Assembly: GCA_965263355.1 (NCBI GenBank)
Contig: CBDHHL010000032.1
Coordinates: 32,001-96,000 of the forward strand
Source of the DNA: Leptolyngbyaceae cyanobacterium
GTDB lineage: Bacteria > Cyanobacteriota > Cyanobacteriia > Phormidesmidales > Phormidesmidaceae
Direction: 5' to 3'
DNA: 64,000 nt
The position numbers and the translations under genes are program-made. Numbering within the stretch: position 1 is the stretch's first letter; every line of letters starts with the position of its first letter. Below the pieces are notes generated by a model. The model was not told the origin of the DNA. It ran no database searches and was given only the letters and a program-made list of their open reading frames with translations. This document shows positions 17,208-25,467 of this stretch, piece by piece.

Positions 17208-18167
17208 GTGATGAAACGGCGAAGATTCTTTCAATATACAGGGTTAGGCGGTTTAAGCCTTGTGCTGGCAACCCGAAACGGTGCATTCGCTTCAGCGCTT
17301 TCTAACCCCATAGATTCCCAAAAACTAGGGTTAGAAACATTTTCTTTTCAGGTCACTACGGTTGATAAAACAGGAAAAACGCAGTATCCACATACCCATA
17401 CTGCAAAGTATTTCCCAGAGTCGCTCAATCATGTTGAACGACTAGATATGGTCGAGATCACACCGGGTAAATTTTTGATGGGCTCCACTCGATCTGAAGC
17501 CTACGCTAAGGGGAGTGAATTTCCTCGCCATCGTGTGAGCCTGTCGTCTTTTTTCTTGAGTAAATATCCCATTACCCAGGCGCAGTGGGCTGCTGTTGCC
17601 GCATTGCCCAAGGTGAATCGAGACTTATCCCTTGATCCTTCCCACTTTCAAGGTGGTGCTCGTCCCGTAGAAAGTGTTTCCTGGTTGGAAGCAACTGAGT
17701 TTTGCGATCGCTTAAGCAAGCATACTGGTCGTCAGTACCAGCTTCCCAGTGAGGCTCAGTGGGAATATGCCTGTCGTGCTGGCAGCAAGACTCCTTTTAG
17801 TACAGGAGATACAATAATCAGTCAGCTGGCTGATTATCGCGCCAATGTCACTTACAAGGCTGAATCTCCTGGAGACTATCGACAAGCAACCATGCCGGTC
17901 GGCAGCTTTTCTGCCAATGGATTTGGATTACATGATATGCATGGGAATGTCTGGGAATGGTGTGCCGATGGCTGGCATCGCAATTATCGCAGTGCTGCAA
18001 CCAATGGCAGGGCACGTAGACAGGTGTCAGGTAAGCTAGCCCAGCTAAGAACAATTCGTGGTGGTAGCTGGTTAGATTCCCCTGACAAAGTGCGTTCTGC
18101 CAGTCGGTCTGGTTATGCTGAGACAGCCTTGAACCGTACGATTGGCTTTCGCGTGATGATGGCATAG
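17208..18167 (+). CDS. Tat-exported FGE-sulfatase (SUMF1-like) domain protein
   Basis: KRRRFFQ twin-arginine signal; [43 protein letters not shown]. Confidence 0.9.
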
Positions 18168-18178
18168 GGAGAAGGCGC

Positions 18179-19162
18179 ATGGTATTGATTCAAAAAGTCC
18201 CCGTTACTGTATTAACTGGCTATCTGGGGGCTGGCAAAACCACATTACTCAATCGGATTCTCACAGAAGAGCATAATCAACGGGTTGCCGTTATTGTCAA
18301 TGAATTTGGCGAAGTTGGTATTGACCATCAGTTAGTGATGGATGCCGACGAAGAAATTTTTGAAATGAATAATGGCTGCATTTGTTGTACGGTGCGGGGA
18401 GATTTAATTCGGATTATTAATGATCTGATGACCCGGCGAGATCGGTTTGATCATTTGGTGATTGAAACCACTGGGTTAGCCGATCCGGCTCCGGTTATTC
18501 AATCCTTCTTTGTGGACGAGGTAATGCTGCGTCAGACCCAGCTGGATGCGGTGGTGACTGTGGTGGACGCCAAGCACATTTGGGCTCATTGGGACAGTAG
18601 TGAGGCTCAAGAACAGATTGCCTTTGCCGATGTGATTTTGCTTAACAAAACTGATTTGGTGTCTGCTGAGATTTTGGAGGCGTTAATGCAGAAGGTAAGG
18701 GGGATGAATGCGATCGCAAAAATCCACACCACCCAAAACTGTGACATTGACCTCAGTCTTTTGTTGGGAGTTCAAGCCTTTGACCTCAAAAATGCCCTGA
18801 GTATTGATCCTACCTTTTTAGACGAAGATGCCCATGAGCATGACAATTCTGTCTTTTCTATAGCGATTAAAAATGCAGAAGCCATTGATATTGATGAGCT
18901 AAATCGCTGGCTCTATCGGCTGGTACAGGCAAAAGGCCCCGATATCTTTCGCATGAAAGGGATTTTGAATGTGGCTAATGCTGAACGACGGTTTGTATTT
19001 CAAGGTGTACACATGACCTTAGATGGTCGGCCTGGTAAACCATGGCGACCAGGGGAGACTCGTCAAAATGAGCTGGTTTTTATTGGTCGCAATTTAGATG
19101 AGGCAGAGCTTCGAACTGGATTTGAGAATTGTTTTGCAAAAGCCTATGCCCATTCAATGTGA
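18179..19162 (+). CDS. COG0523/CobW-P47K family metallochaperone GTPase
   Basis: [26 protein letters not shown], CobW_C domain. Confidence 0.93.
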
Positions 19163-19281
19163 GGCTGACCCACCCCGGAGCCCCTCCCAGGAGGGGCTAG
19201 GGTATCGGTTCTTGCGTTAAGTATTGCATTTTACTAAATCTTTTTTCGACTTTTTCATCCTACTGAGAACAAGACAAACCT

Positions 19282-20028
19282 ATGAAACTACAACATGCCC
19301 TTGGCGGGCTGCAAGGATTAGACACCATTACCCCAGAAATAGAGGTATTTGTTGAGCCTTGGGAAAAGCGAATCTTTGGCATTCATACGGCGATGATGGC
19401 CCTTAGTAACCATCTTGATACAGCCTTACCGGGCTATGCCATTGATGAGGTGCCTACCACCTTTAAGAGCTTTTGGACCTGGGGCCATTTGCGCATGGGA
19501 GCAGAGGGAATGCATCCCTTTGAGTACTTCCGATTACGGTATTACGAGAAATGGCTGGGGGGTATTTCAGGCTTCTTTGTTAGCGAAGGTTACATTACCC
19601 AGGAAGAGCTAGATGCGCGCACCGCTGAGTATTTAGAGGACAGCGAAGCCGCAGCAGCCCCTTTGCCCAGTGGAGGCGACGCAGCCATTGATGATCAGGT
19701 GGTGAAATACTTGAGAGAAGGGGATTCTCCCATGCGTCCCTTGGTAGCTCCACCCAAATTTAGTTTGGGTGATCAGGTCAAGATCAAGATTGTCTCTCCT
19801 GGTGCCCATAGCCGCTTGCCTGGTAATTTGCAAGGCCGCGTAGCCACAGTGGTCAAGGTGTATGAAGGGGCGTTTACCTACTTCTTTCCCACCGCCGATG
19901 GCATTGGTGTTCCCATGCCGGTTTATAGTCTGGCTTTTCAAGTAGAAGACCTGTGGGATGAATCGTTGACTGAGCCGAATACGGTTTACTACAACGACAT
20001 TTTTGAAGTGTACATAGAAGCCGCGTAA
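19282..20028 (+). CDS. nthB: Nitrile hydratase beta subunit (divergent N-terminus)
   Basis: F.EPWEKR, LR..AE.M, YYEKW, HSRLP, VYSLAF...LW, IFE.YI. Confidence 0.88.
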   Translation: MKLQHALGGLQGLDTITPEIEVFVEPWEKRIFGIHTAMMALSNHLDTALPGYAIDEVPTTFKSFWTWGHLRMGAEGMHPFEYFRLRYYEKWLGGISGFFVSEGYITQEELDARTAEYLEDSEAAAAPLPSGGDAAIDDQVVKYLREGDSPMRPLVAPPKFSLGDQVKIKIVSPGAHSRLPGNLQGRVATVVKVYEGAFTYFFPTADGIGVPMPVYSLAFQVEDLWDESLTEPNTVYYNDIFEVYIEAA

Positions 20029-20052
20029 ACAAGGTGATTGAAGGAGTCTATT

Positions 20053-20676
20053 ATGCCAAGTAATTACCCAGGATTTAGATACGGTGCTGATCGAGAAACC
20101 TTTAGTGCTGCTAAAGTCAAAGCCCTAGAGTCTCTTCTAATCGAAAAAGGAATTATCACCGGGAATACGGTAGATACGATTCTCAGTTATTTTGAAACTG
20201 AGATGGGTCCCTTTAATGGCGCTAAAGTGGTGGCAAAAGCATGGGTTGATCCTGATTTTAAGAAGCTGTTGCTAGAAGACTGTAATGCGGCCTGTGAAGC
20301 CATGGACTTTCCTGAAGGAATGTCGGGGGCAGAGGGGGAACACATGCGCATTGTGGAGAATACGCCCGAGGTGCATAACGTAATCGTGTGTACCCTATGT
20401 TCTTGTTATCCCTGGCCTACATTAGGCTTACCCCCCTACTGGTTTAAGGATCCTACGTTTAGAGCAAGAGTCGTTCGAGAACCTCGCGTTGTTTTGTCTG
20501 AATTTGGCGTAGAGTTAGATGACTCTGTAAAAGTTCTCGTGTGGGATAGCAGTGCTCAGATTCGCTGGTGGGTGTTGCCTATGCGTCCTCCTGGCACAGA
20601 AGCCATGAGTGAGACAGAGCTAGCGAGCTTACTAACACCTGAAGCCATGATGGGCGTTGCTACCGTCTCAGTTTAA
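20053..20676 (+). CDS. nthA: Cobalt-type nitrile hydratase alpha subunit
   Basis: GAKVVAKAWVDP.FK, VCTLCSCYPW (Thr/Tyr indicates Co-type), R.R.VREPR. Confidence 0.95.
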   Translation: MPSNYPGFRYGADRETFSAAKVKALESLLIEKGIITGNTVDTILSYFETEMGPFNGAKVVAKAWVDPDFKKLLLEDCNAACEAMDFPEGMSGAEGEHMRIVENTPEVHNVIVCTLCSCYPWPTLGLPPYWFKDPTFRARVVREPRVVLSEFGVELDDSVKVLVWDSSAQIRWWVLPMRPPGTEAMSETELASLLTPEAMMGVATVSV

Positions 20677-20801
20677 ATGCTAACCCACCCCGTTGCCCCT
20701 CCCAGGAGGGGATGAAGTCTCGGTCTTTGCATTTGAGCACTGCATTAGATTCTCGACTCTTATGTAGCCCAAATGTATTCATTTCCCTCAGGTTCCTTGA
20801 T

Positions 20802-21167
20802 ATGTTTACACAATTCGAACATTTTGCGGCGACTAGCTTAATGGGTTCGCCTGAAGAAGCACCACCCCGGAGCAATGGTCATCTCCAGTTTGATCGTGAC
20901 TGGGAAAAGATGGCCTTTGGTGTGGCCATTGCCCTCTCAAAGCAGGGTTATTATGAGTGGGAAGAATTTCGTCAAACATTGATTGCAACGATTGGTGAGT
21001 GGGAAGCTACCCACGATCTAGACGATCCAGAATGGGATTATTACCAATGTTGGTTAACTGCCCTAGAGAAATTGGTCGTTGCCTCAGGTGTACTCAAAGC
21101 AGGTGAATTGGAATCACAACTATCTCAGTTGTTGAACTGCAAAGCAACGACTGAGATGAAATGCTGA
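20802..21167 (+). CDS. Nitrile hydratase accessory/activator protein (beta-like, P14K/NhlE type)
   Basis: PPRSNG.L.F..DWE..AFG.A, WEEFRQ.LI, YYQCWL.ALE. Confidence 0.88.
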   Translation: MFTQFEHFAATSLMGSPEEAPPRSNGHLQFDRDWEKMAFGVAIALSKQGYYEWEEFRQTLIATIGEWEATHDLDDPEWDYYQCWLTALEKLVVASGVLKAGELESQLSQLLNCKATTEMKC

Positions 21168-21336: not shown

Positions 21337-21369
21337 AAATACCCTGATTTTAGTATCAGGGTATTTTTT
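21337..21369 (+). terminator. Intrinsic terminator of the nitrile hydratase operon
   Basis: Perfect 12-bp stem AAATACCCTGAT/ATCAGGGTATTT, 6-nt loop, T tail. Confidence 0.75.
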
Positions 21370-21390
21370 ATACCAATACTCCGGACAGAA

Positions 21391-21692
21391 TTAGGAGACT
21401 AGAACCCCATAGTCACAAAGACTCGAATAGTTGGGATGTGATTTAATCAAAGTCTCGTCTAAGTCTAAGTTGCGAATAAACCTGTCCATCAGATGTTGAT
21501 TGAGTTTGCGACGTTTGTAGGAGGCCATGGAAAAGACAAAGGGTTCCCACGGTCTCGCTGCTGATACTGTTCCCATTTGGCGATATTCAAAGCGGTTAGC
21601 GAGGCATTGAAATGGAAATCGAGTTTCTGTTCATCCCTGGCTTGGCAGTCCGTTAAGCCGGTGAACTGTTTTGCATCTCTAAAAATAAATTC
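21391..21692 (-). pseudogene. Transposase C-terminal fragment
   Basis: Manual translation EFIFRDAKQFTGLTDCQARDEQKLDFHFNASL..., then FSMASYKRR...YGVLVS* after a frameshift. Confidence 0.85.
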
Positions 21693-21866
21693 AATGTGCC
21701 AGCCATAACACCCCCATAAGAACGAAATCTACTTCGTGCCCAACGATTGGATTAACAGGCCTATTGCGATTAGTAAAGACGATCGCGAAAATGAAAACTC
21801 ATTCCCTGTTGTCAATAGAGGAAGAGCCTTCATGCCAAAGTGTCCTGAGCCCCCCCGTCAATTCGT

Positions 21867-22001
21867 GTGCAACCCAAGCACCTATGGCAAACACTGCCGG
21901 AGCCACAGCGGCAACGGCTAATGAGCATCCTCAGTCAGATGCTAGAGAGTCATCTGAGCGCCTCTGTGGCAAAGGAGGCGAGCAATGAGCCTGAAAACTG
22001 A
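21867..22001 (+). CDS. Small helical accessory protein overlapping the recombinase start (not in ORF track)
   Basis: GTG-start 44 aa VQPKHLWQTLPEPQRQRLMSILSQMLESHLSASVAKEASNEPEN*; amphipathic; true start may be ATG 21832 across a C7 run. Confidence 0.45.
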   Translation: MQPKHLWQTLPEPQRQRLMSILSQMLESHLSASVAKEASNEPEN

Positions 22002-24141
22002 ACTCAGCTGGGTTTCCGAAAAGCTTCAAGCGCATCACCTAGAGCGATTGGCTATCGTGTACGTACGCCAGTCCACCTTGCAACAAGTGCTAGACCATCA
22101 AGAATCGACGCGAATTCAGTACAGCTTGGTAGATCGTGCCCAAGCGCTGGGCTGGCAACCAGGCCGCATTCTGACGATAGATGAAGACTTGGGTAAGTCG
22201 GGTAGCAGCGCCGAAGGCCGTTTAGGCTTTCAGCGTCTGGTCACTGAAGTCGGTCTCAACCATGTGGGCCTGATATTAGGTGTAGAAATGTCCCGTCTGG
22301 CTCGCTGCTCTAAAGATTGGCATCAATTGCTGGAAATCTGTGCACTGTTCGGTACGCTAATAGCAGACCTCGATGGCATTTATGACCCCAGCGGGTATAA
22401 CGACCGCTTACTGTTGGGCTTAAAAGGCACCATGAGCGAAGCCGAACTCCATATCCTCAAACAGCGCATGGTTCAAGGGAAGCGCAACAAAGCCAAGCGA
22501 GGCGAACTAGGCTTCAGCGTCCCGATAGGCTATGTTCGTCGCCCCTCGGGAGAGATTCGCTTTGACCCAGACGAACAGGCCCAACAAGTGGTCAAGCTCA
22601 TCTTTCGTAAGTTTGAGGAGCTAGGTACGCTGAACGCGGTACTGCGCTATCTTGTTAGCAATCACATCCAAGTCGGTGTCAGGGTTCTATCGGGTCTTAA
22701 CAAAGGAGATTTAGAGTGGCGCAGGCCGAATCGGCCCACCTTACAGAATCTGCTGAGAAGCCCAGTCTATGCAGGTGCTTACGCTTATGGCCGCAAGCAG
22801 ATGGATGCGAGACGAAAAAAGGTTGAACACCCTCATGGCGGCTTAGTCGTGAAACCAATGGACGAGTGGCTCGTGTTGATTAAAGACCATCATCCTGCTT
22901 ACATTTCCTGGGCGCAATATGAACAACATCTGGCCCAACTCAAATCGAATCGAGCCAGAGCTGATGAATGTGGCCATGCCCGCTCAGGCGCAGCTTTGTT
23001 ATCAGGGCTGCTGACCTGCGGTCGCTGTGGCGCTCGCATGACGGTTCGCTACCATCGAGGGCCAGCCTCTCATTGCTATGTCTGCAACCGTGAGATGGCA
23101 GACTATGGTGGAGAACTTTGTCAGCAGTTGGCAGGGGTGTGTTTAGATGAATCTGTCACCGAACAAGTTCTACGAGCATTAAAACCAGCGGCATTGGAGC
23201 TATCGTTAACGGCTGCAACCCACATCGAACAAGACCGTGCCGAATTAGACAAGTTATGGCATCAGCGATTAGAACGTGCCCGTTTTGAGTCAGAGCGTGC
23301 TGGTCGGCATTATCATCTTATAGAGCCCGAAAATCGTCTCGTTGCTAGGCAACTAGCTCAGGAATGGGAGCATGCCTTACAAGCAGAGCAACAGCTCAAA
23401 GAAGAGTATAAGAGATTCTCTCATGAACAACCTAGGCAGCTCACAGATGAAGAAAAGAAACAGATTCGTCAACTCTCAGAATGCCTGCCTAACTTGTGGT
23501 TTGCTGAAACAACGACCCATGCACAGCGAAAAGAAATTGTTCGTCAAATAATTCAGAAGATTGTTGTAAATATTGAAGGTGAAAGTGAACAAGTTCAGGT
23601 TAGTATTGAGTGGAGTGGTGGTTTTATTGGAAAAGCGAGTGTCATTCGCCCCGTGGCCAAATGGACTCAGCTAAGCAACTACTCACAACTTTGTGAGCGC
23701 CTTAGACAAATGGCCGAAGCACAGTTAAGCACTGATGAAATGATTGCGCGACTCCACCAAGAAGGCTTTCATCCACCGAAGCGTCGCAAAACGTTCAACC
23801 GAGAGATTTTGCGGTCATTAATGCGGCGACTCGGACTCGGTACTCGCCGTAGCCCAAAATCTAGAAAACCCTTGGCTACGCATGAGTGGTGGTTGCCTGA
23901 TTTAGCGCTGGCTTTAGAGATGCCGGAGGTAACCCTTTATAATTGGGTGCAACGAGGCTGGGTCAATGGACGACAACTGCCTGAACCACCTAAACACTGG
24001 GTGATCTGGGCGGATGAAGCCGAGCTAGGACGACTCCGTGCCCATCGAGCACGCCCTGTCGGTGACGTGCGACGACAGCTGTGGCAGGGAGAAGTGCTTG
24101 ACATCACTGTTCCGCCTACAATACCCCAAACCAATGAGTGA
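21985..24141 (+). CDS. Large serine recombinase (resolvase, recombinase, Zn-ribbon/coiled-coil, C-terminal HTH)
   Basis: IVYVRQST catalytic Ser, DEDLGKSGS, SRLAR, PIGY, LLSGLLTCGRCG...YVC...C, C-terminal LA..LEMPEVTLYNWV.RG; aaggagg RBS. Confidence 0.95.
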   Translation: MSLKTELSWVSEKLQAHHLERLAIVYVRQSTLQQVLDHQESTRIQYSLVDRAQALGWQPGRILTIDEDLGKSGSSAEGRLGFQRLVTEVGLNHVGLILGVEMSRLARCSKDWHQLLEICALFGTLIADLDGIYDPSGYNDRLLLGLKGTMSEAELHILKQRMVQGKRNKAKRGELGFSVPIGYVRRPSGEIRFDPDEQAQQVVKLIFRKFEELGTLNAVLRYLVSNHIQVGVRVLSGLNKGDLEWRRPNRPTLQNLLRSPVYAGAYAYGRKQMDARRKKVEHPHGGLVVKPMDEWLVLIKDHHPAYISWAQYEQHLAQLKSNRARADECGHARSGAALLSGLLTCGRCGARMTVRYHRGPASHCYVCNREMADYGGELCQQLAGVCLDESVTEQVLRALKPAALELSLTAATHIEQDRAELDKLWHQRLERARFESERAGRHYHLIEPENRLVARQLAQEWEHALQAEQQLKEEYKRFSHEQPRQLTDEEKKQIRQLSECLPNLWFAETTTHAQRKEIVRQIIQKIVVNIEGESEQVQVSIEWSGGFIGKASVIRPVAKWTQLSNYSQLCERLRQMAEAQLSTDEMIARLHQEGFHPPKRRKTFNREILRSLMRRLGLGTRRSPKSRKPLATHEWWLPDLALALEMPEVTLYNWVQRGWVNGRQLPEPPKHWVIWADEAELGRLRAHRARPVGDVRRQLWQGEVLDITVPPTIPQTNE

Positions 24142-24253
24142 CAACTATTTGAATCGTCTGTAGGAGAAGATATATGCTCAAAAAACAGCCTCTGGAAAAC
24201 CTACCTCGGCAGAATCAACTAAATGCCTATGGGGGTAATGAGGCTGGCACATC

Positions 24254-25166
24254 TCGATTTGGAAGCGCGCTCGGTACGCCTCGACTAGTTGCATCGGGTC
24301 GAGGTCAATATCGGTGGAGAATAGCAATGCATAGCATAGCCGTTCGGGATGCTTGCGATTGAGCAGATACACCACTCGAATCTTGTGCTTGAGGTAAACG
24401 GACCAGACCACAGCTGTGTAGAGTTCGGTTTCGGGGTCGACCTCACCGAGTGCTGCCAGCGAGTGAGGTCAGTCAAATCAACCTTACCGTCATATTTACG
24501 GCGCGCGCCACGAGGCTTTTGCGGACCGTCATAGAGATAGTTCAAGTTGGCATCGCAACGGAGCTTACCAATCGTGTCTAGCCCCAACTCAACCACACCA
24601 TTCACCCACTTTTGCTTGCTGTAGAAGCCATCCCCCACCAAGTATCGAACGGCTGCTGGGAAGGTATCTCGGGTAGCCTGCAAGTGGTCTAGATAGTCAT
24701 CAACCCGTGTGTCCGGTCTGTGTCCACTTCATCGACGGGCTCAAGTGACGGTGGGGTCTGTTGCACCGATAGCGTGTAGCCAATGAGTTGTTCGACGTCT
24801 ACCACCGCGATCATCGAGATCTCTAACCCCCGTTCGGTCCGACTGGCTTTGCCATTGTAGAAACGGTCTACGCCGTAGGTGGCTTTCCCACTTTTGGGCA
24901 CAAACGACGCATCCACCACCCCCACCTGGAAATGGGTTGGCACAATGGCGGCCTCAATCACGACTTGAGTGAAGCTCATGAATTCATAAGGCTGCTCAAA
25001 GTGACGACGATAGGTCCGCTCCGACAGGTCGCTATAACGACTCAGATTGGTGAAGTTTACCTTGCCACACATCACATAGATGGTCGTAAACAGGGTGATT
25101 AAAAACTGGCGACGAGGTTTGCTAAATGGCCCACTTTACGCAGTAGACCCGGTATCATGCATAGCA
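24254..25166 (-). pseudogene. DDE transposase N-terminal part, with several frameshifts/stop
   Basis: VNFTNLSRYS, VDASF.PKSGK.TYG, GLEIS, VGDGFYSK, KLRCDANL, LFSTD, YRARFQIE spread over several frames. Confidence 0.88.
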
Positions 25167-25467
25167 TAGCTATTCAGGTTGGTTTGTCTGTTAACAAAAC
25201 CTTAGAGCCTGGATAGCTTTTCTGTCTATTTCTCTCGCTTTTCTGTCCGGACTATTGTTATACAAGATACATATCTCTGCGTCGTCTTCAATACATTCGT
25301 TGCTCTAATAAAGGCCTGACATTTCTTAAGCTTGTATTGCTTGTCGGGTAAAATCATTAACTGCTCTGGTATACTAATCTCAAGAAAGAAATAATGTTTT
25401 TAGTGATTGAGATATCTGAAATGCTGCATTATCTTATGATTATGTAAATAATGCTACTTTCTTCTCA

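Follow-up and report, generated by a model that had tools for sequence, protein, structure and literature searches.

Organization of the Locus

The 64,000 nt stretch of Leptolyngbyaceae cyanobacterium DNA analyzed here (contig CBDHHL010000032.1, positions 32,001–96,000, forward strand; hereafter “the window”, with coordinates counted from its first letter) contains, at 21693–24255, a mobile unit of 2563 bp that sits inside the transposase gene of an insertion sequence (IS) and very probably represents an IS-sized element driven by its own large serine recombinase (LSR). The features of the locus are as follows (strand in brackets, where one applies):

21366–21390: left terminal inverted repeat of the host IS (approximate; homology to other copies starts at 21371)
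21492–21692 (−): C-terminal fragment of the host IS701/IS4-like DDE transposase, beginning at a glutamate (Glu) codon (E-FIFRDAKQFTG...)
21691–21692: attL crossover dinucleotide TC, which is GA on the transposase coding strand, i.e., bases 1–2 of the Glu codon
21693–21718 (+): left arm (P'), consisting of AA, a 10 bp inner motif, a 5 bp spacer and a 9 bp outer motif; kept in relatives
21695–21856 (+): small gene, segment A (..IGLTGLLRLVKTIAKMK..SPP)
21850–21856 (+): poly-C tract (C7) between the two small-gene frames
21852–21998 (+): small gene, segment B, in the +1 frame (..HLWQTLPEPQRQRLMSILSQMLESHL..), with its stop just past the LSR start codon
21985–24141 (+): LSR of 718 aa (Pfam), with the catalytic Ser30 in VYVRQS
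24174–24253 (+): small gene, 5' part, with an ATG at 24174 after AGGAG, reading out through the right arm
24228–24253 (−): right arm (P), consisting of a 9 bp outer motif, a 5 bp spacer and a 10 bp inner motif, then TC
24254–24255: attR crossover dinucleotide TC
24256–25075 (−): N-terminal part of the host transposase, ending in ..YRARFQI just before the Glu codon; extra frameshifts
25241–25265: right terminal inverted repeat of the host IS (approximate)

The two ends of the unit are inverted relative to each other, with a 24 nt arm, TGTGCCAGCC-ATAAC-ACCCCCATA, at 21695–21718 (+) and its counterpart, TGTGCCAGCC-TCATT-ACCCCCATA, at 24228–24251 (−), both reading just as a first-pass annotation of this DNA had given them from 21695 and 24251. 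The motif TGTGCCAGCC-N5-ACCCCCATA, with up to 3 mismatches allowed, occurs at only 2 places in the 64 kb, these being the element ends, while none of the shuffles (0/100) had 2 matches to it, and the pair of arms is also the longest inverted repeat found by a repeat search of the region (25 nt, 84% complementary). The flanks read ..AAAT-TC-AA-arm on the left and arm-TC-TC-GATT.. on the right, with only the letters TC in common; the earlier statement that the 6 bp flanks are no target duplication and share a central TC is thus borne out, a duplication longer than TC being absent. The length of 2.56 kb given there also agrees with the unit of 2563 bp, but the span proposed for it, 21691–24255, includes both copies of TC. 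Likewise, the spacer, described as 5 variable letters, indeed has a different sequence at each end, yet its variation is constrained, each side keeping its own form among the relatives (A[TCG]AA[CT] on the left, TCA[ATG][TA] on the right).

The att sites are, as is the case for serine recombinases, imperfect inverted repeats around a 2 bp crossover with no further target duplication, and the classical marks of an IS, its own DDE transposase and a target-site duplication, are both absent from the 2563 bp unit. That these might be IS ends moved by a DDE enzyme acting in trans was rejected, the duplication being at most 2 bp and the joints exact. An attP half-site of a serine integrase consists of an inner recombinase-domain motif, a 5 bp linker and a 9 bp zinc-ribbon motif, and the 10/5/9 bp layout of the arms fits an analogous assignment of the inner motif to the recombinase domain and of the outer one to the zinc ribbon.

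The Recombinase

The 718 aa open reading frame (ORF) matches the Pfam families Resolvase (E 3.2e-18, residues 23–174), Recombinase (PF07508, 1.1e-12) and Zn_ribbon_recom (PF13408, 4.3e-8), in this order, which is the domain order of LSRs, with the catalytic domain at the N-terminus. The motifs R-Q-S-T and S-R-L-A-R, as well as the zinc-ribbon cysteines, are invariant in 26 sequences. No DDE domain was found by Pfam inside the element, whose 2563 bp hold only the genes for the LSR and the split small protein discussed below, which supports the initial description of a 718 aa large serine recombinase unaccompanied by a DDE transposase. The nearest solved structure is that of the SPbeta integrase (E 9e-9, residues 70–353), and the best NCBIfam match is XisF (NF041201; E 1.8e-34); because the latter reaches 119.5 bits versus an equivalog cut-off of 375, the LSR is, on its sequence, not an XisF equivalog.

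The approximately 160 extra residues at the C-terminus of the LSR are kept across the family. A model of the C-terminal 175 residues (mean predicted local distance difference test (pLDDT) value of 78.7) shows two small helical modules of helix-turn-helix-like appearance, the second of which has a weak local likeness to BldC/MerR-type winged helices (Foldseek probability 0.99, TM 0.64 over 58 columns, E 0.09); no PDB match to this model was returned by Foldseek at E ≤ 0.001, only weak winged-helix, MarR, MerR and BldC rows. DUF4368 had no Pfam match in the LSR at E ≤ 0.01 and none in the C-terminal part at E ≤ 5.

The Host IS and Its Empty Site

The terminal repeats of the host IS match at 18/20 positions (21371–21390 vs. 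25241–25260), and the IS would be about 1.34 kb long without the insert. Its predicted transposase is IS701/IS4-like: both minus-strand flanks carry fragments of a DDE_5 transposase (Pfam), the N-terminal half being present as ORF fragments at 24689–25075, 24285–24683 and 24178–24411, and the best NCBIfam match of the transposase of a related copy (L074) is the IS701 family, albeit below the cut-off. Paralogous IS copies differ from the window copy by indels at 24453 and 24707, and a DNA search with the right part of the IS returned copies in 4/5 related genomes.

Two of the uninterrupted copies, L076 and L074, show what the site looks like without the element: the left and right flanks of the window abut in them with an exact 2 nt TC overlap. 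The 18-mer that had been predicted as the empty site, reading F-Q-I-E-F-I-F-R-D, and which is absent from the 64 kb window itself, is contained in L076 (translation through the junction, RFQIEFIFRD), while L074 has the same junction inside an open transposase frame of 341 aa (reading ..YRARFQIEFIFREAKQFTG..). Neither copy contains the extra 6 bp or differs at the site, either of which had been named in advance as telling against the prediction. In L073, the same IS carries the LSR element at the same place. As attL, attR and attB agree only in TC, strand exchange is placed within those 2 bp, and such a predicted confinement to a 2 bp core is the mark of a serine recombinase. The notion that the LSR might be an accessory resolvase of the host IS was rejected, given the absence of an LSR from intact copies of the same IS and the variety of IS families among the hosts.

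Three public runs of the window’s own organism (X1–X3), of which assembled contigs rather than reads were aligned to the region, show the empty junction as well. One X3 contig joins 21690 to 24254, skipping 2563 bp, with TC..TC at the ends and 2 ambiguous letters; contigs ending at 21692 go on with the first 15 letters of the right flank (X1, X2 and X3), and, where contigs start at 24254, the final 13 letters of the left flank stand before that point (X1 and X2). Contigs of this organism also break at 21374 and 25259, near the ends of the host IS. Furthermore, in X1–X3 the element ends are also joined to other flanks, which points to further insertions in the organism or its sample. If one such left-end flank is rejoined at the core in silico, the outcome would be E-QFFKDCK, a further transposase site of the Y-R-E-K type (see below). 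The contig depths of the element and of its unique left flank were 56 vs. 16, 16 vs. 8 and 39 vs. 29, these depths not being equal to copy numbers.

Related Elements and Their Mobility

A protein search with the LSR yielded at least 8000 candidates, the best 120 of which were examined and found to be 61–96% identical over the full length. Many of the homologues lie on contigs of ~2.5–2.8 kb (e.g., 2565, 2560 and 2562 nt), and such element-length contigs are how a multi-copy repeat is expected to look in short-read assemblies. A search through a single genome from each species gave 72 related loci in cyanobacteria, Actinomycetota, Alphaproteobacteria, Planctomycetota and others, and 481 plasmid records, mostly rhizobial, carry relatives of the LSR at E ≤ 1e-30. 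An LSR protein of 96% identity and a locus of 95% identity are present elsewhere. Single genomes hold several copies of relatives, none of which brings along its own DDE enzyme: one Leptolyngbya genome has at least 11 LSR loci and two metagenome-assembled genomes (MAGs) have 4 each, and the identity between copies within a genome ends at the arms (after ~2417 bp for an alphaproteobacterial MAG and ~2500 bp for an actinobacterial MAG).

Some copies are longer than the usual ~2540–2560 nt (L001:2711-6353, L011 and L015, with 3643, 3680 and 2696 nt, respectively), these elements having themselves been hit by further insertions, and the LSR frame of L001 is cut at 660 aa. Several kinds of mobile DNA are nested in one place on a Streptomyces plasmid (L089:6374-7085), where the invaded IS701 copy adjoins a group II intron reverse transcriptase gene.

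The Target Rule

Insertion sites were called by taking the best inverted repeat around the LSR gene and then the dinucleotide common to the flanks at symmetric distances, with translation carried out only afterwards, and the 17 elements that had an inverted repeat of at least 18/24 and a shared TC were regarded as passing. All of them (17/17) have a Glu at the core on the strand opposite to the LSR, the core being the first two bases of its codon, accompanied by Arg at −4 in 15/17, Trp or Phe at −3 in 16/17 and Lys at +7 in 11/17; these positions make up Y-(2)-R-(3)-E-(6)-K, the DDE transposase signature. The window insertion itself (RFQI-E-FIFRDAK, the Glu codon beginning with the crossover GA) follows it. 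A regular-expression pass anchored on the end motifs, with one or both flanks, contributed 24 more loci and L004 one, so that 42 of the 73 copies (the window plus 41/72 relatives) are found at the Glu codon of Y-R-E-K. The base following the core is a purine in 26/26 elements for which both flanks are at hand, and the codon is therefore always Glu. As to whether such an element is site-specific or multi-target, a check that the first-pass annotation had asked for, the answer is that it is motif-specific, being confined to one codon of a conserved transposase motif in at least 5 IS families.

The identity of the hosts is supported by their proteins. ORFs of the right flank are DDE transposases in 15/25 cases (Pfam: DDE_5, DDE_Tnp_1, DDE_Tnp_1_4, DDE_Tnp_IS240), and in 6 flank ORFs the DDE_Tnp_1 match stops at profile position 162–163 of 200, at most 1 residue from the ORF end. 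NCBIfam matches of host transposases above the cut-off comprise IS701, IS1380, IS5, IS6 and IS4, two of the loci having been missed by Pfam, and the public annotation of two plasmid copies lists a “recombinase family protein” and, after it in antisense orientation, a transposase of the IS701 or IS4 family. In IS4 family transposases, the E of YREK and that of the DDE triad are one and the same Glu residue, as stated in an excerpt of PMC2266710. No transposase chain on which the target Glu could be mapped in a solved Tn5-type structure was found by phmmer, and the assignment of the Glu thus rests on the published YREK definition.

One exception in orientation is informative. In L004, arms and LSR are arranged in the usual way, but the central 6 bp are inverted; the LSR strand reads GA at the core, and the transposase (..YQKRFDI-E-EMFRDFK..) points in the same direction as the LSR. 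It is thus the asymmetric core that determines the orientation, as it does in characterized serine integrases.

The rest of the 73-locus tally is made up of 8 members of a sister lineage in IS21, one locus that adjoins IS21 and was not called (L009) and 22 further loci without a called site, which are mostly more distant relatives or cut contigs. One of the latter (L003) is a contig with the element only, and the other 21 were screened through their LSR-adjacent ORFs of at least 140 aa (90 in all), 4/21 loci (L043, L050, L070, L071) having a transposase of the DDE or rve type among them. For the clades with recognizable ends, we regard the predicted target rule as firm.

A Sister Lineage in IS21

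The sister lineage, found in one Leptolyngbya genome, has diverged arms (TCTACTAGCC..) and the core GA, and it splits istA of IS21 at ..NRHYYS|VPYWY.., within the Mu-transposase C-terminal domain, istB lying downstream. All 10 copies of the IS21 segment in one Leptolyngbya genome (G001) are occupied and 0 are empty (L079-L088; L012:1444-6313), which reflects either a composite spread with the transposase acting in trans or the invasion of every copy by the LSR element. A 414 nt flank that was searched is at or near 100% identical in all ten IS21 copies, with slight differences in their best E-values.

Two of the IS21 copies are rearranged (L026:163-5264; L080; L084; L009). In L080, an LSR element of a second type (arms TGCGCCAGCC..) starts at the TC that normally opens the left arm of the resident element, and in L026/L084 the resident element is inverted and separated from the second element by no more than AA. 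The arrangement is suggestive of the use of one LSR element's att site by another such element, or of recombination between elements.

Likeness of attP to the Target DNA

When written in the coding orientation, the attP half beside the core reads ..GGC TGG CAC ATT GA in cyanobacteria, ..CGG TGG CTG ACT GA in Actinomycetota and ..A TGG GAT ATC GA in Alphaproteobacteria, the half of each lineage thus resembling the local coding of (R)-W-x-I/V-E. The upstream half of attB agrees with the attP arms at 6.5–6.8 of 14 positions (26 elements), vs. 3.7 for shuffles, and the downstream half at 3.4–4.0 of 14. We infer that one well-matched half-site, held in place by selection on the transposase active site, would suffice for aiming the recombinase.

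The Circle or Tandem Junction and a Small Gene It Would Complete

A degenerate motif of the joined ends has matches at 16 places in metagenome contigs, which is about the chance number, and 14/16, having neither the outer arm motifs nor LSR coding sequence, look like chance. The other two, L092 and L093, which stem from different samples and represent relatives of the window element, have the complete junction outer-spacer-inner-TC-TC-AA-inner-spacer-outer, with the C-terminus of the LSR encoded before it and the N-terminus after it, on contigs of 3471 and 3303 nt, i.e., more than 1 unit. The junction around TC that had been predicted for the circle of the window element does, therefore, occur naturally in relatives, in the form of circles or head-to-tail tandems, while that of the window copy itself was not seen.

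The junction also bears on what had been noted as “tiny ORFs”. Small frames do exist in the element, but they are pieces of one conserved small gene. In the integrated state, its 5' part continues into the host DNA as an ORF (24174–24362), and segment A has no start codon, a TAA standing 3 codons upstream of the left arm. Since the start lies in the right end, the full frame would exist only in a circular or tandem form. In L092, a 124 aa ORF crosses the junction, its ATG being located in the right end at a distance of 28 codons ahead of the left arm and its terminal TGA overlapping the LSR start codon. When the ends are joined in silico, the ATG stands 28 codons before the arm in 8/9 complete cyanobacterial elements (the window one included) and 30 in the ninth, while 18/21 elements from other lineages likewise have a frame across the junction whose stop codon overlaps with the start of the LSR.

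Segment A (..IGLTGLLRLV..AKMKA..) has a codon-position entropy of 0.77/0.36/1.15 (nt 49–105), a pattern indicative of protein-coding constraint. The segment B peptide (..LWxxLPxPxRQRLxxxLSQMLE..) is conserved too, the third position of the +1 frame varying the most (1.26 vs. 0.93 and 0.84). Segments A and B are offset from each other by one base in 13/15 cyanobacterial elements and fused in 2/15, and a C6–C8 tract is present 148–157 nt from the arm start in 15/15. More broadly, a run of at least six C upstream of the LSR is seen in 36/60 loci, including planctomycete and actinobacterial ones; among these 60, the alphaproteobacterial clade has none. Eight near-identical copies in one genome have C8 in 3 cases and C9 in 5. 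Taken together, these features suggest one small protein that would be made complete only from the joined form, with the help of a +1 shift or slippage, and that would act with the LSR.

When a naturally fused version of the small protein was predicted in complex with its LSR, the score was 0.58, with the best of 3 controls at 0.00 (runs agreeing in at least 62% of contacts; partner pLDDT of at least 44), which lends this weak support. The mark used is reached by 116/157 solved complexes and 2/215 mismatched pairs, only 18 of those 157 complexes, and both passing mismatches, lying at a score of 0.60 or less. A promoter and terminator scan returned 3 of each, vs. 2.9 and 3.1 expected.

The alphaproteobacterial L031 (L031:4612-5136 and the right end) is arranged differently: its LSR frame has no stop ahead of the right end and would run across the junction into the small-gene frame, the stop of the LSR frame in its relatives standing 18–20 codons before the end, and the small-gene ATG of this lineage seemingly lies inside the right arm (..V-A-M-P-G-R|Y-R-Y-P-I..).

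As for the surroundings, 17208–21167, just to the left of the host IS, holds what we take, from the translations and known sequence features, to be a nitrile hydratase cluster, with a candidate CobW-like GTPase (18179–19162), presumed beta and alpha subunits (19282–20028 and 20038–20676) and an activator-like ORF (20712–21167).

Interpretation and Alternatives

Comparing the sequences shows the element's ends and core, its empty site, the attP junction of relatives and the target rule, and we regard it as very likely that 21693–24255 is an IS-sized, LSR-driven element that moves by conservative site-specific recombination and is a hyperparasite of insertion sequences, entering the Glu codon of their transposases. 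Under the mechanism proposed, the circular form would carry attP as two near-symmetric arms around a central TC, and the LSR would exchange strands at this 2 bp core with a target having TC at the matching place; integration would thereby create attL and attR, duplicating nothing but the core, and excision would give back the exact target. The target is a motif rather than one locus, namely the DNA coding for the (R)-W/F-x-I/V-E of Y-(2)-R-(3)-E-(6)-K, whose RWxIE-coding half the attP arms resemble, and the insertion splits the transposase at its active-site codon, with the LSR normally antisense to it. The LSR alone probably catalyzes both integration and excision, and the small conserved gene would either act with the LSR or control it. 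The excisable, recombinase-driven and IS-sized nature of the element, as originally put forward, thus finds support in the empty sites, the attP junction of the relatives and multi-copy relatives that have no DDE enzyme of their own.

A more far-reaching proposition, which we are slightly more inclined to doubt than to accept, is that these are obligate IS hyperparasites whose attP imitates an active-site motif, which home into at least 5 IS families in several phyla, a sister lineage having switched to istA of IS21, which disable their hosts reversibly and ride on the copies of these, and in which a self-control gene, completed by the junction and a +1 frameshift, ties the expression or direction of the recombinase to excision.

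A number of points weigh against the reading of the locus as a mobile hyperparasite. Recombination, excision or a circle was not observed for the window copy; no circle junction of it was present in the X1–X3 contigs (contigs cannot reveal rare circles), and the strict junction motif of the window subfamily had 0 matches in the metagenome contigs. Instead of circles, L092 and L093 may represent dimers in tandem or joins made during assembly. One of the empty-junction contigs (record 3) differs from the window at 5 positions, and some of the empty junctions therefore stem from other, uninvaded IS copies; those of X1–X3 may come from never-invaded paralogous copies altogether. The host IS copy has further frameshifts, and the insertion may be old, nothing requiring a recent date for it, the invaded IS being dead either way. 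Of the 21 loci screened, 17 have no transposase ORF of at least 140 aa next to the LSR, and the target rule may not hold for distant relatives (~40–55% identity). As for the small gene, the C8/C9 differences may be due to slippage or homopolymer sequencing errors, its product matches no Pfam family at E ≤ 5, with atlas scores of 0.82–0.83 lying below the lead level of 0.9, and the predicted fold is uncertain, the complex score being in the weak range.

The decay of the host copy, along with the lack of a circle junction in the X1–X3 contigs, could also be accounted for by an inert relic, i.e., a copy or lineage that no longer moves and whose LSR gene and arms are intact owing to a recent arrival. 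Yet the LSR ORF is of full length and keeps the residues invariant in 26 homologues, a nearly identical protein and locus exist elsewhere, and X1–X3 show the element ends on other flanks, which makes such a relic improbable. Nor do we find it likely that the element, by the same mechanism, serves as a reversible genetic switch that keeps an IS transposase off until precise excision re-activates it, to the benefit of the host or the IS. Such a role would be in keeping with XisF, the recombinase excising the fdxN element, as the nearest named family (NF041201), with the exact restoration of the transposase frame that excision at the 2 bp core would bring about and with the 10/10 occupied copies of the IS21 element in one genome, but the score of the LSR is far below the XisF cut-off (119.5 vs. 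375 bits), its family is spread over many phyla and 481 plasmid records, host IS copies decay after invasion (as the extra frameshifts of the window copy exemplify), and no regulated excision was seen in the material analyzed.

Finally, the element could be a single-site integrative element whose attB occurs in this IS by chance, the pattern among the relatives being one of survival in dispensable multi-copy genes. Insertions into transposase genes are harmless and should persist, and the identity of the target DNA is low outside a few positions; survival per se, however, cannot put the crossover on the same codon across IS4, IS5, IS6, IS701 and IS1380 in 42/73 copies, place a purine after the core in 26/26 or make DDE_Tnp_1 matches end at 162–163 in 6 cases. 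Moreover, the attP arms resemble the upstream and not the downstream half-site, and those of Actinomycetota and Alphaproteobacteria each resemble the version of the motif found in their own hosts, which leaves chance placement a very improbable explanation.

Transposase genes are among the most abundant genes known, and a dedicated parasite of them seems to be undescribed. If the hyperparasite reading is true, such elements would be a natural brake on IS activity, and possibly a switch, and the site-specific recombinase involved would be one whose DNA target is held constant by selection on the active site of a protein, so that one enzyme lineage could find its targets in unrelated hosts. It would also offer compact LSRs whose att sites can be read from genomes, with the orientation given by a 2 bp core, as a possible integration tool, and it may explain annotations of split transposases with a “recombinase family protein” between the halves. 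A junction-completed and frame-split small gene would, in turn, be a new way to sense excision.

Comparison with Known Systems

The closest parallels in mechanism are the clostridial Tn4451/Tn4453 (TnpX) and Tn5397 (TndX), in which an LSR serves as the transposase, as it probably does in the window element. The core of Tn4451 recombined by TnpX is GA, and the TC of the window element is GA on the other strand; the circle joint of Tn4451 forms a promoter for tnpX, which would parallel the junction-completed gene described here. Recombination of Tn4451 takes place between att sequences identical over 2 bp, with the LSR performing both excision and integration without a directionality factor (PMC5704250, in an excerpt). 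The Tn4451/Tn5397 elements are, according to the same excerpt, several kb long, carry cargo and mobilization genes and have low target specificity (PMC5704250), whereas the window element has 2.56 kb, an LSR and a small gene only, and a target of one codon of transposase genes. Similarly, the multi-targeting clade of LSRs commonly has DUF4368, as given in part of a large LSR survey (PMC10083194), unlike the window LSR.

Phage serine integrases (SPbeta YokA, PDB 9dxh) have the same domain order and att sites that are imperfect inverted repeats around a 2 bp core; the window element differs from them in that there is no phage and that its LSR has ~160 extra C-terminal residues. A four-gene repeat of pNGR234a (Sinorhizobium fredii NGR234, NC_000914.2, 33989–37258) encodes a recombinase that is 40% identical to the window LSR (676 residues, E 4e-142, the C-terminal part included), but this repeat is ~3.3 kb long and comprises DUF5372, a helix-turn-helix protein, a small “transposase” and the recombinase, while the window element carries nothing but the LSR gene and the split small gene. 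Homology of the latter's product to the small upstream protein encoded in that repeat was considered but dropped (hhalign probability 0.7%).

The XisF/fdxN element of heterocystous cyanobacteria, like the window element, interrupts a gene that precise excision restores. The fdxN element is large and single-copy and is excised during development, whereas the window element is IS-sized, multi-copy and found in several phyla. The IS607 family, in turn, shares with it the IS size and the serine recombinase as the driving enzyme; IS607 transposases are small, their domain order being inverted and their target specificity minimal (PMC4058570, in an excerpt), as opposed to the 718 aa LSR with its N-terminal catalytic domain (residues 23–174) and strict target.

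No description of LSR elements targeting transposase genes was found in the literature, subscription journals being outside the scope, and the part of the large LSR survey referred to above names competence genes, and not transposase genes, as enriched targets (PMC10083194, supplements aside). The mechanism of the window element is therefore a known one, that of LSR-driven mobile DNA such as Tn4451 and Tn5397, while its niche within the transposase genes of other elements is unusual and the self-control device that it seems to carry is possibly new.

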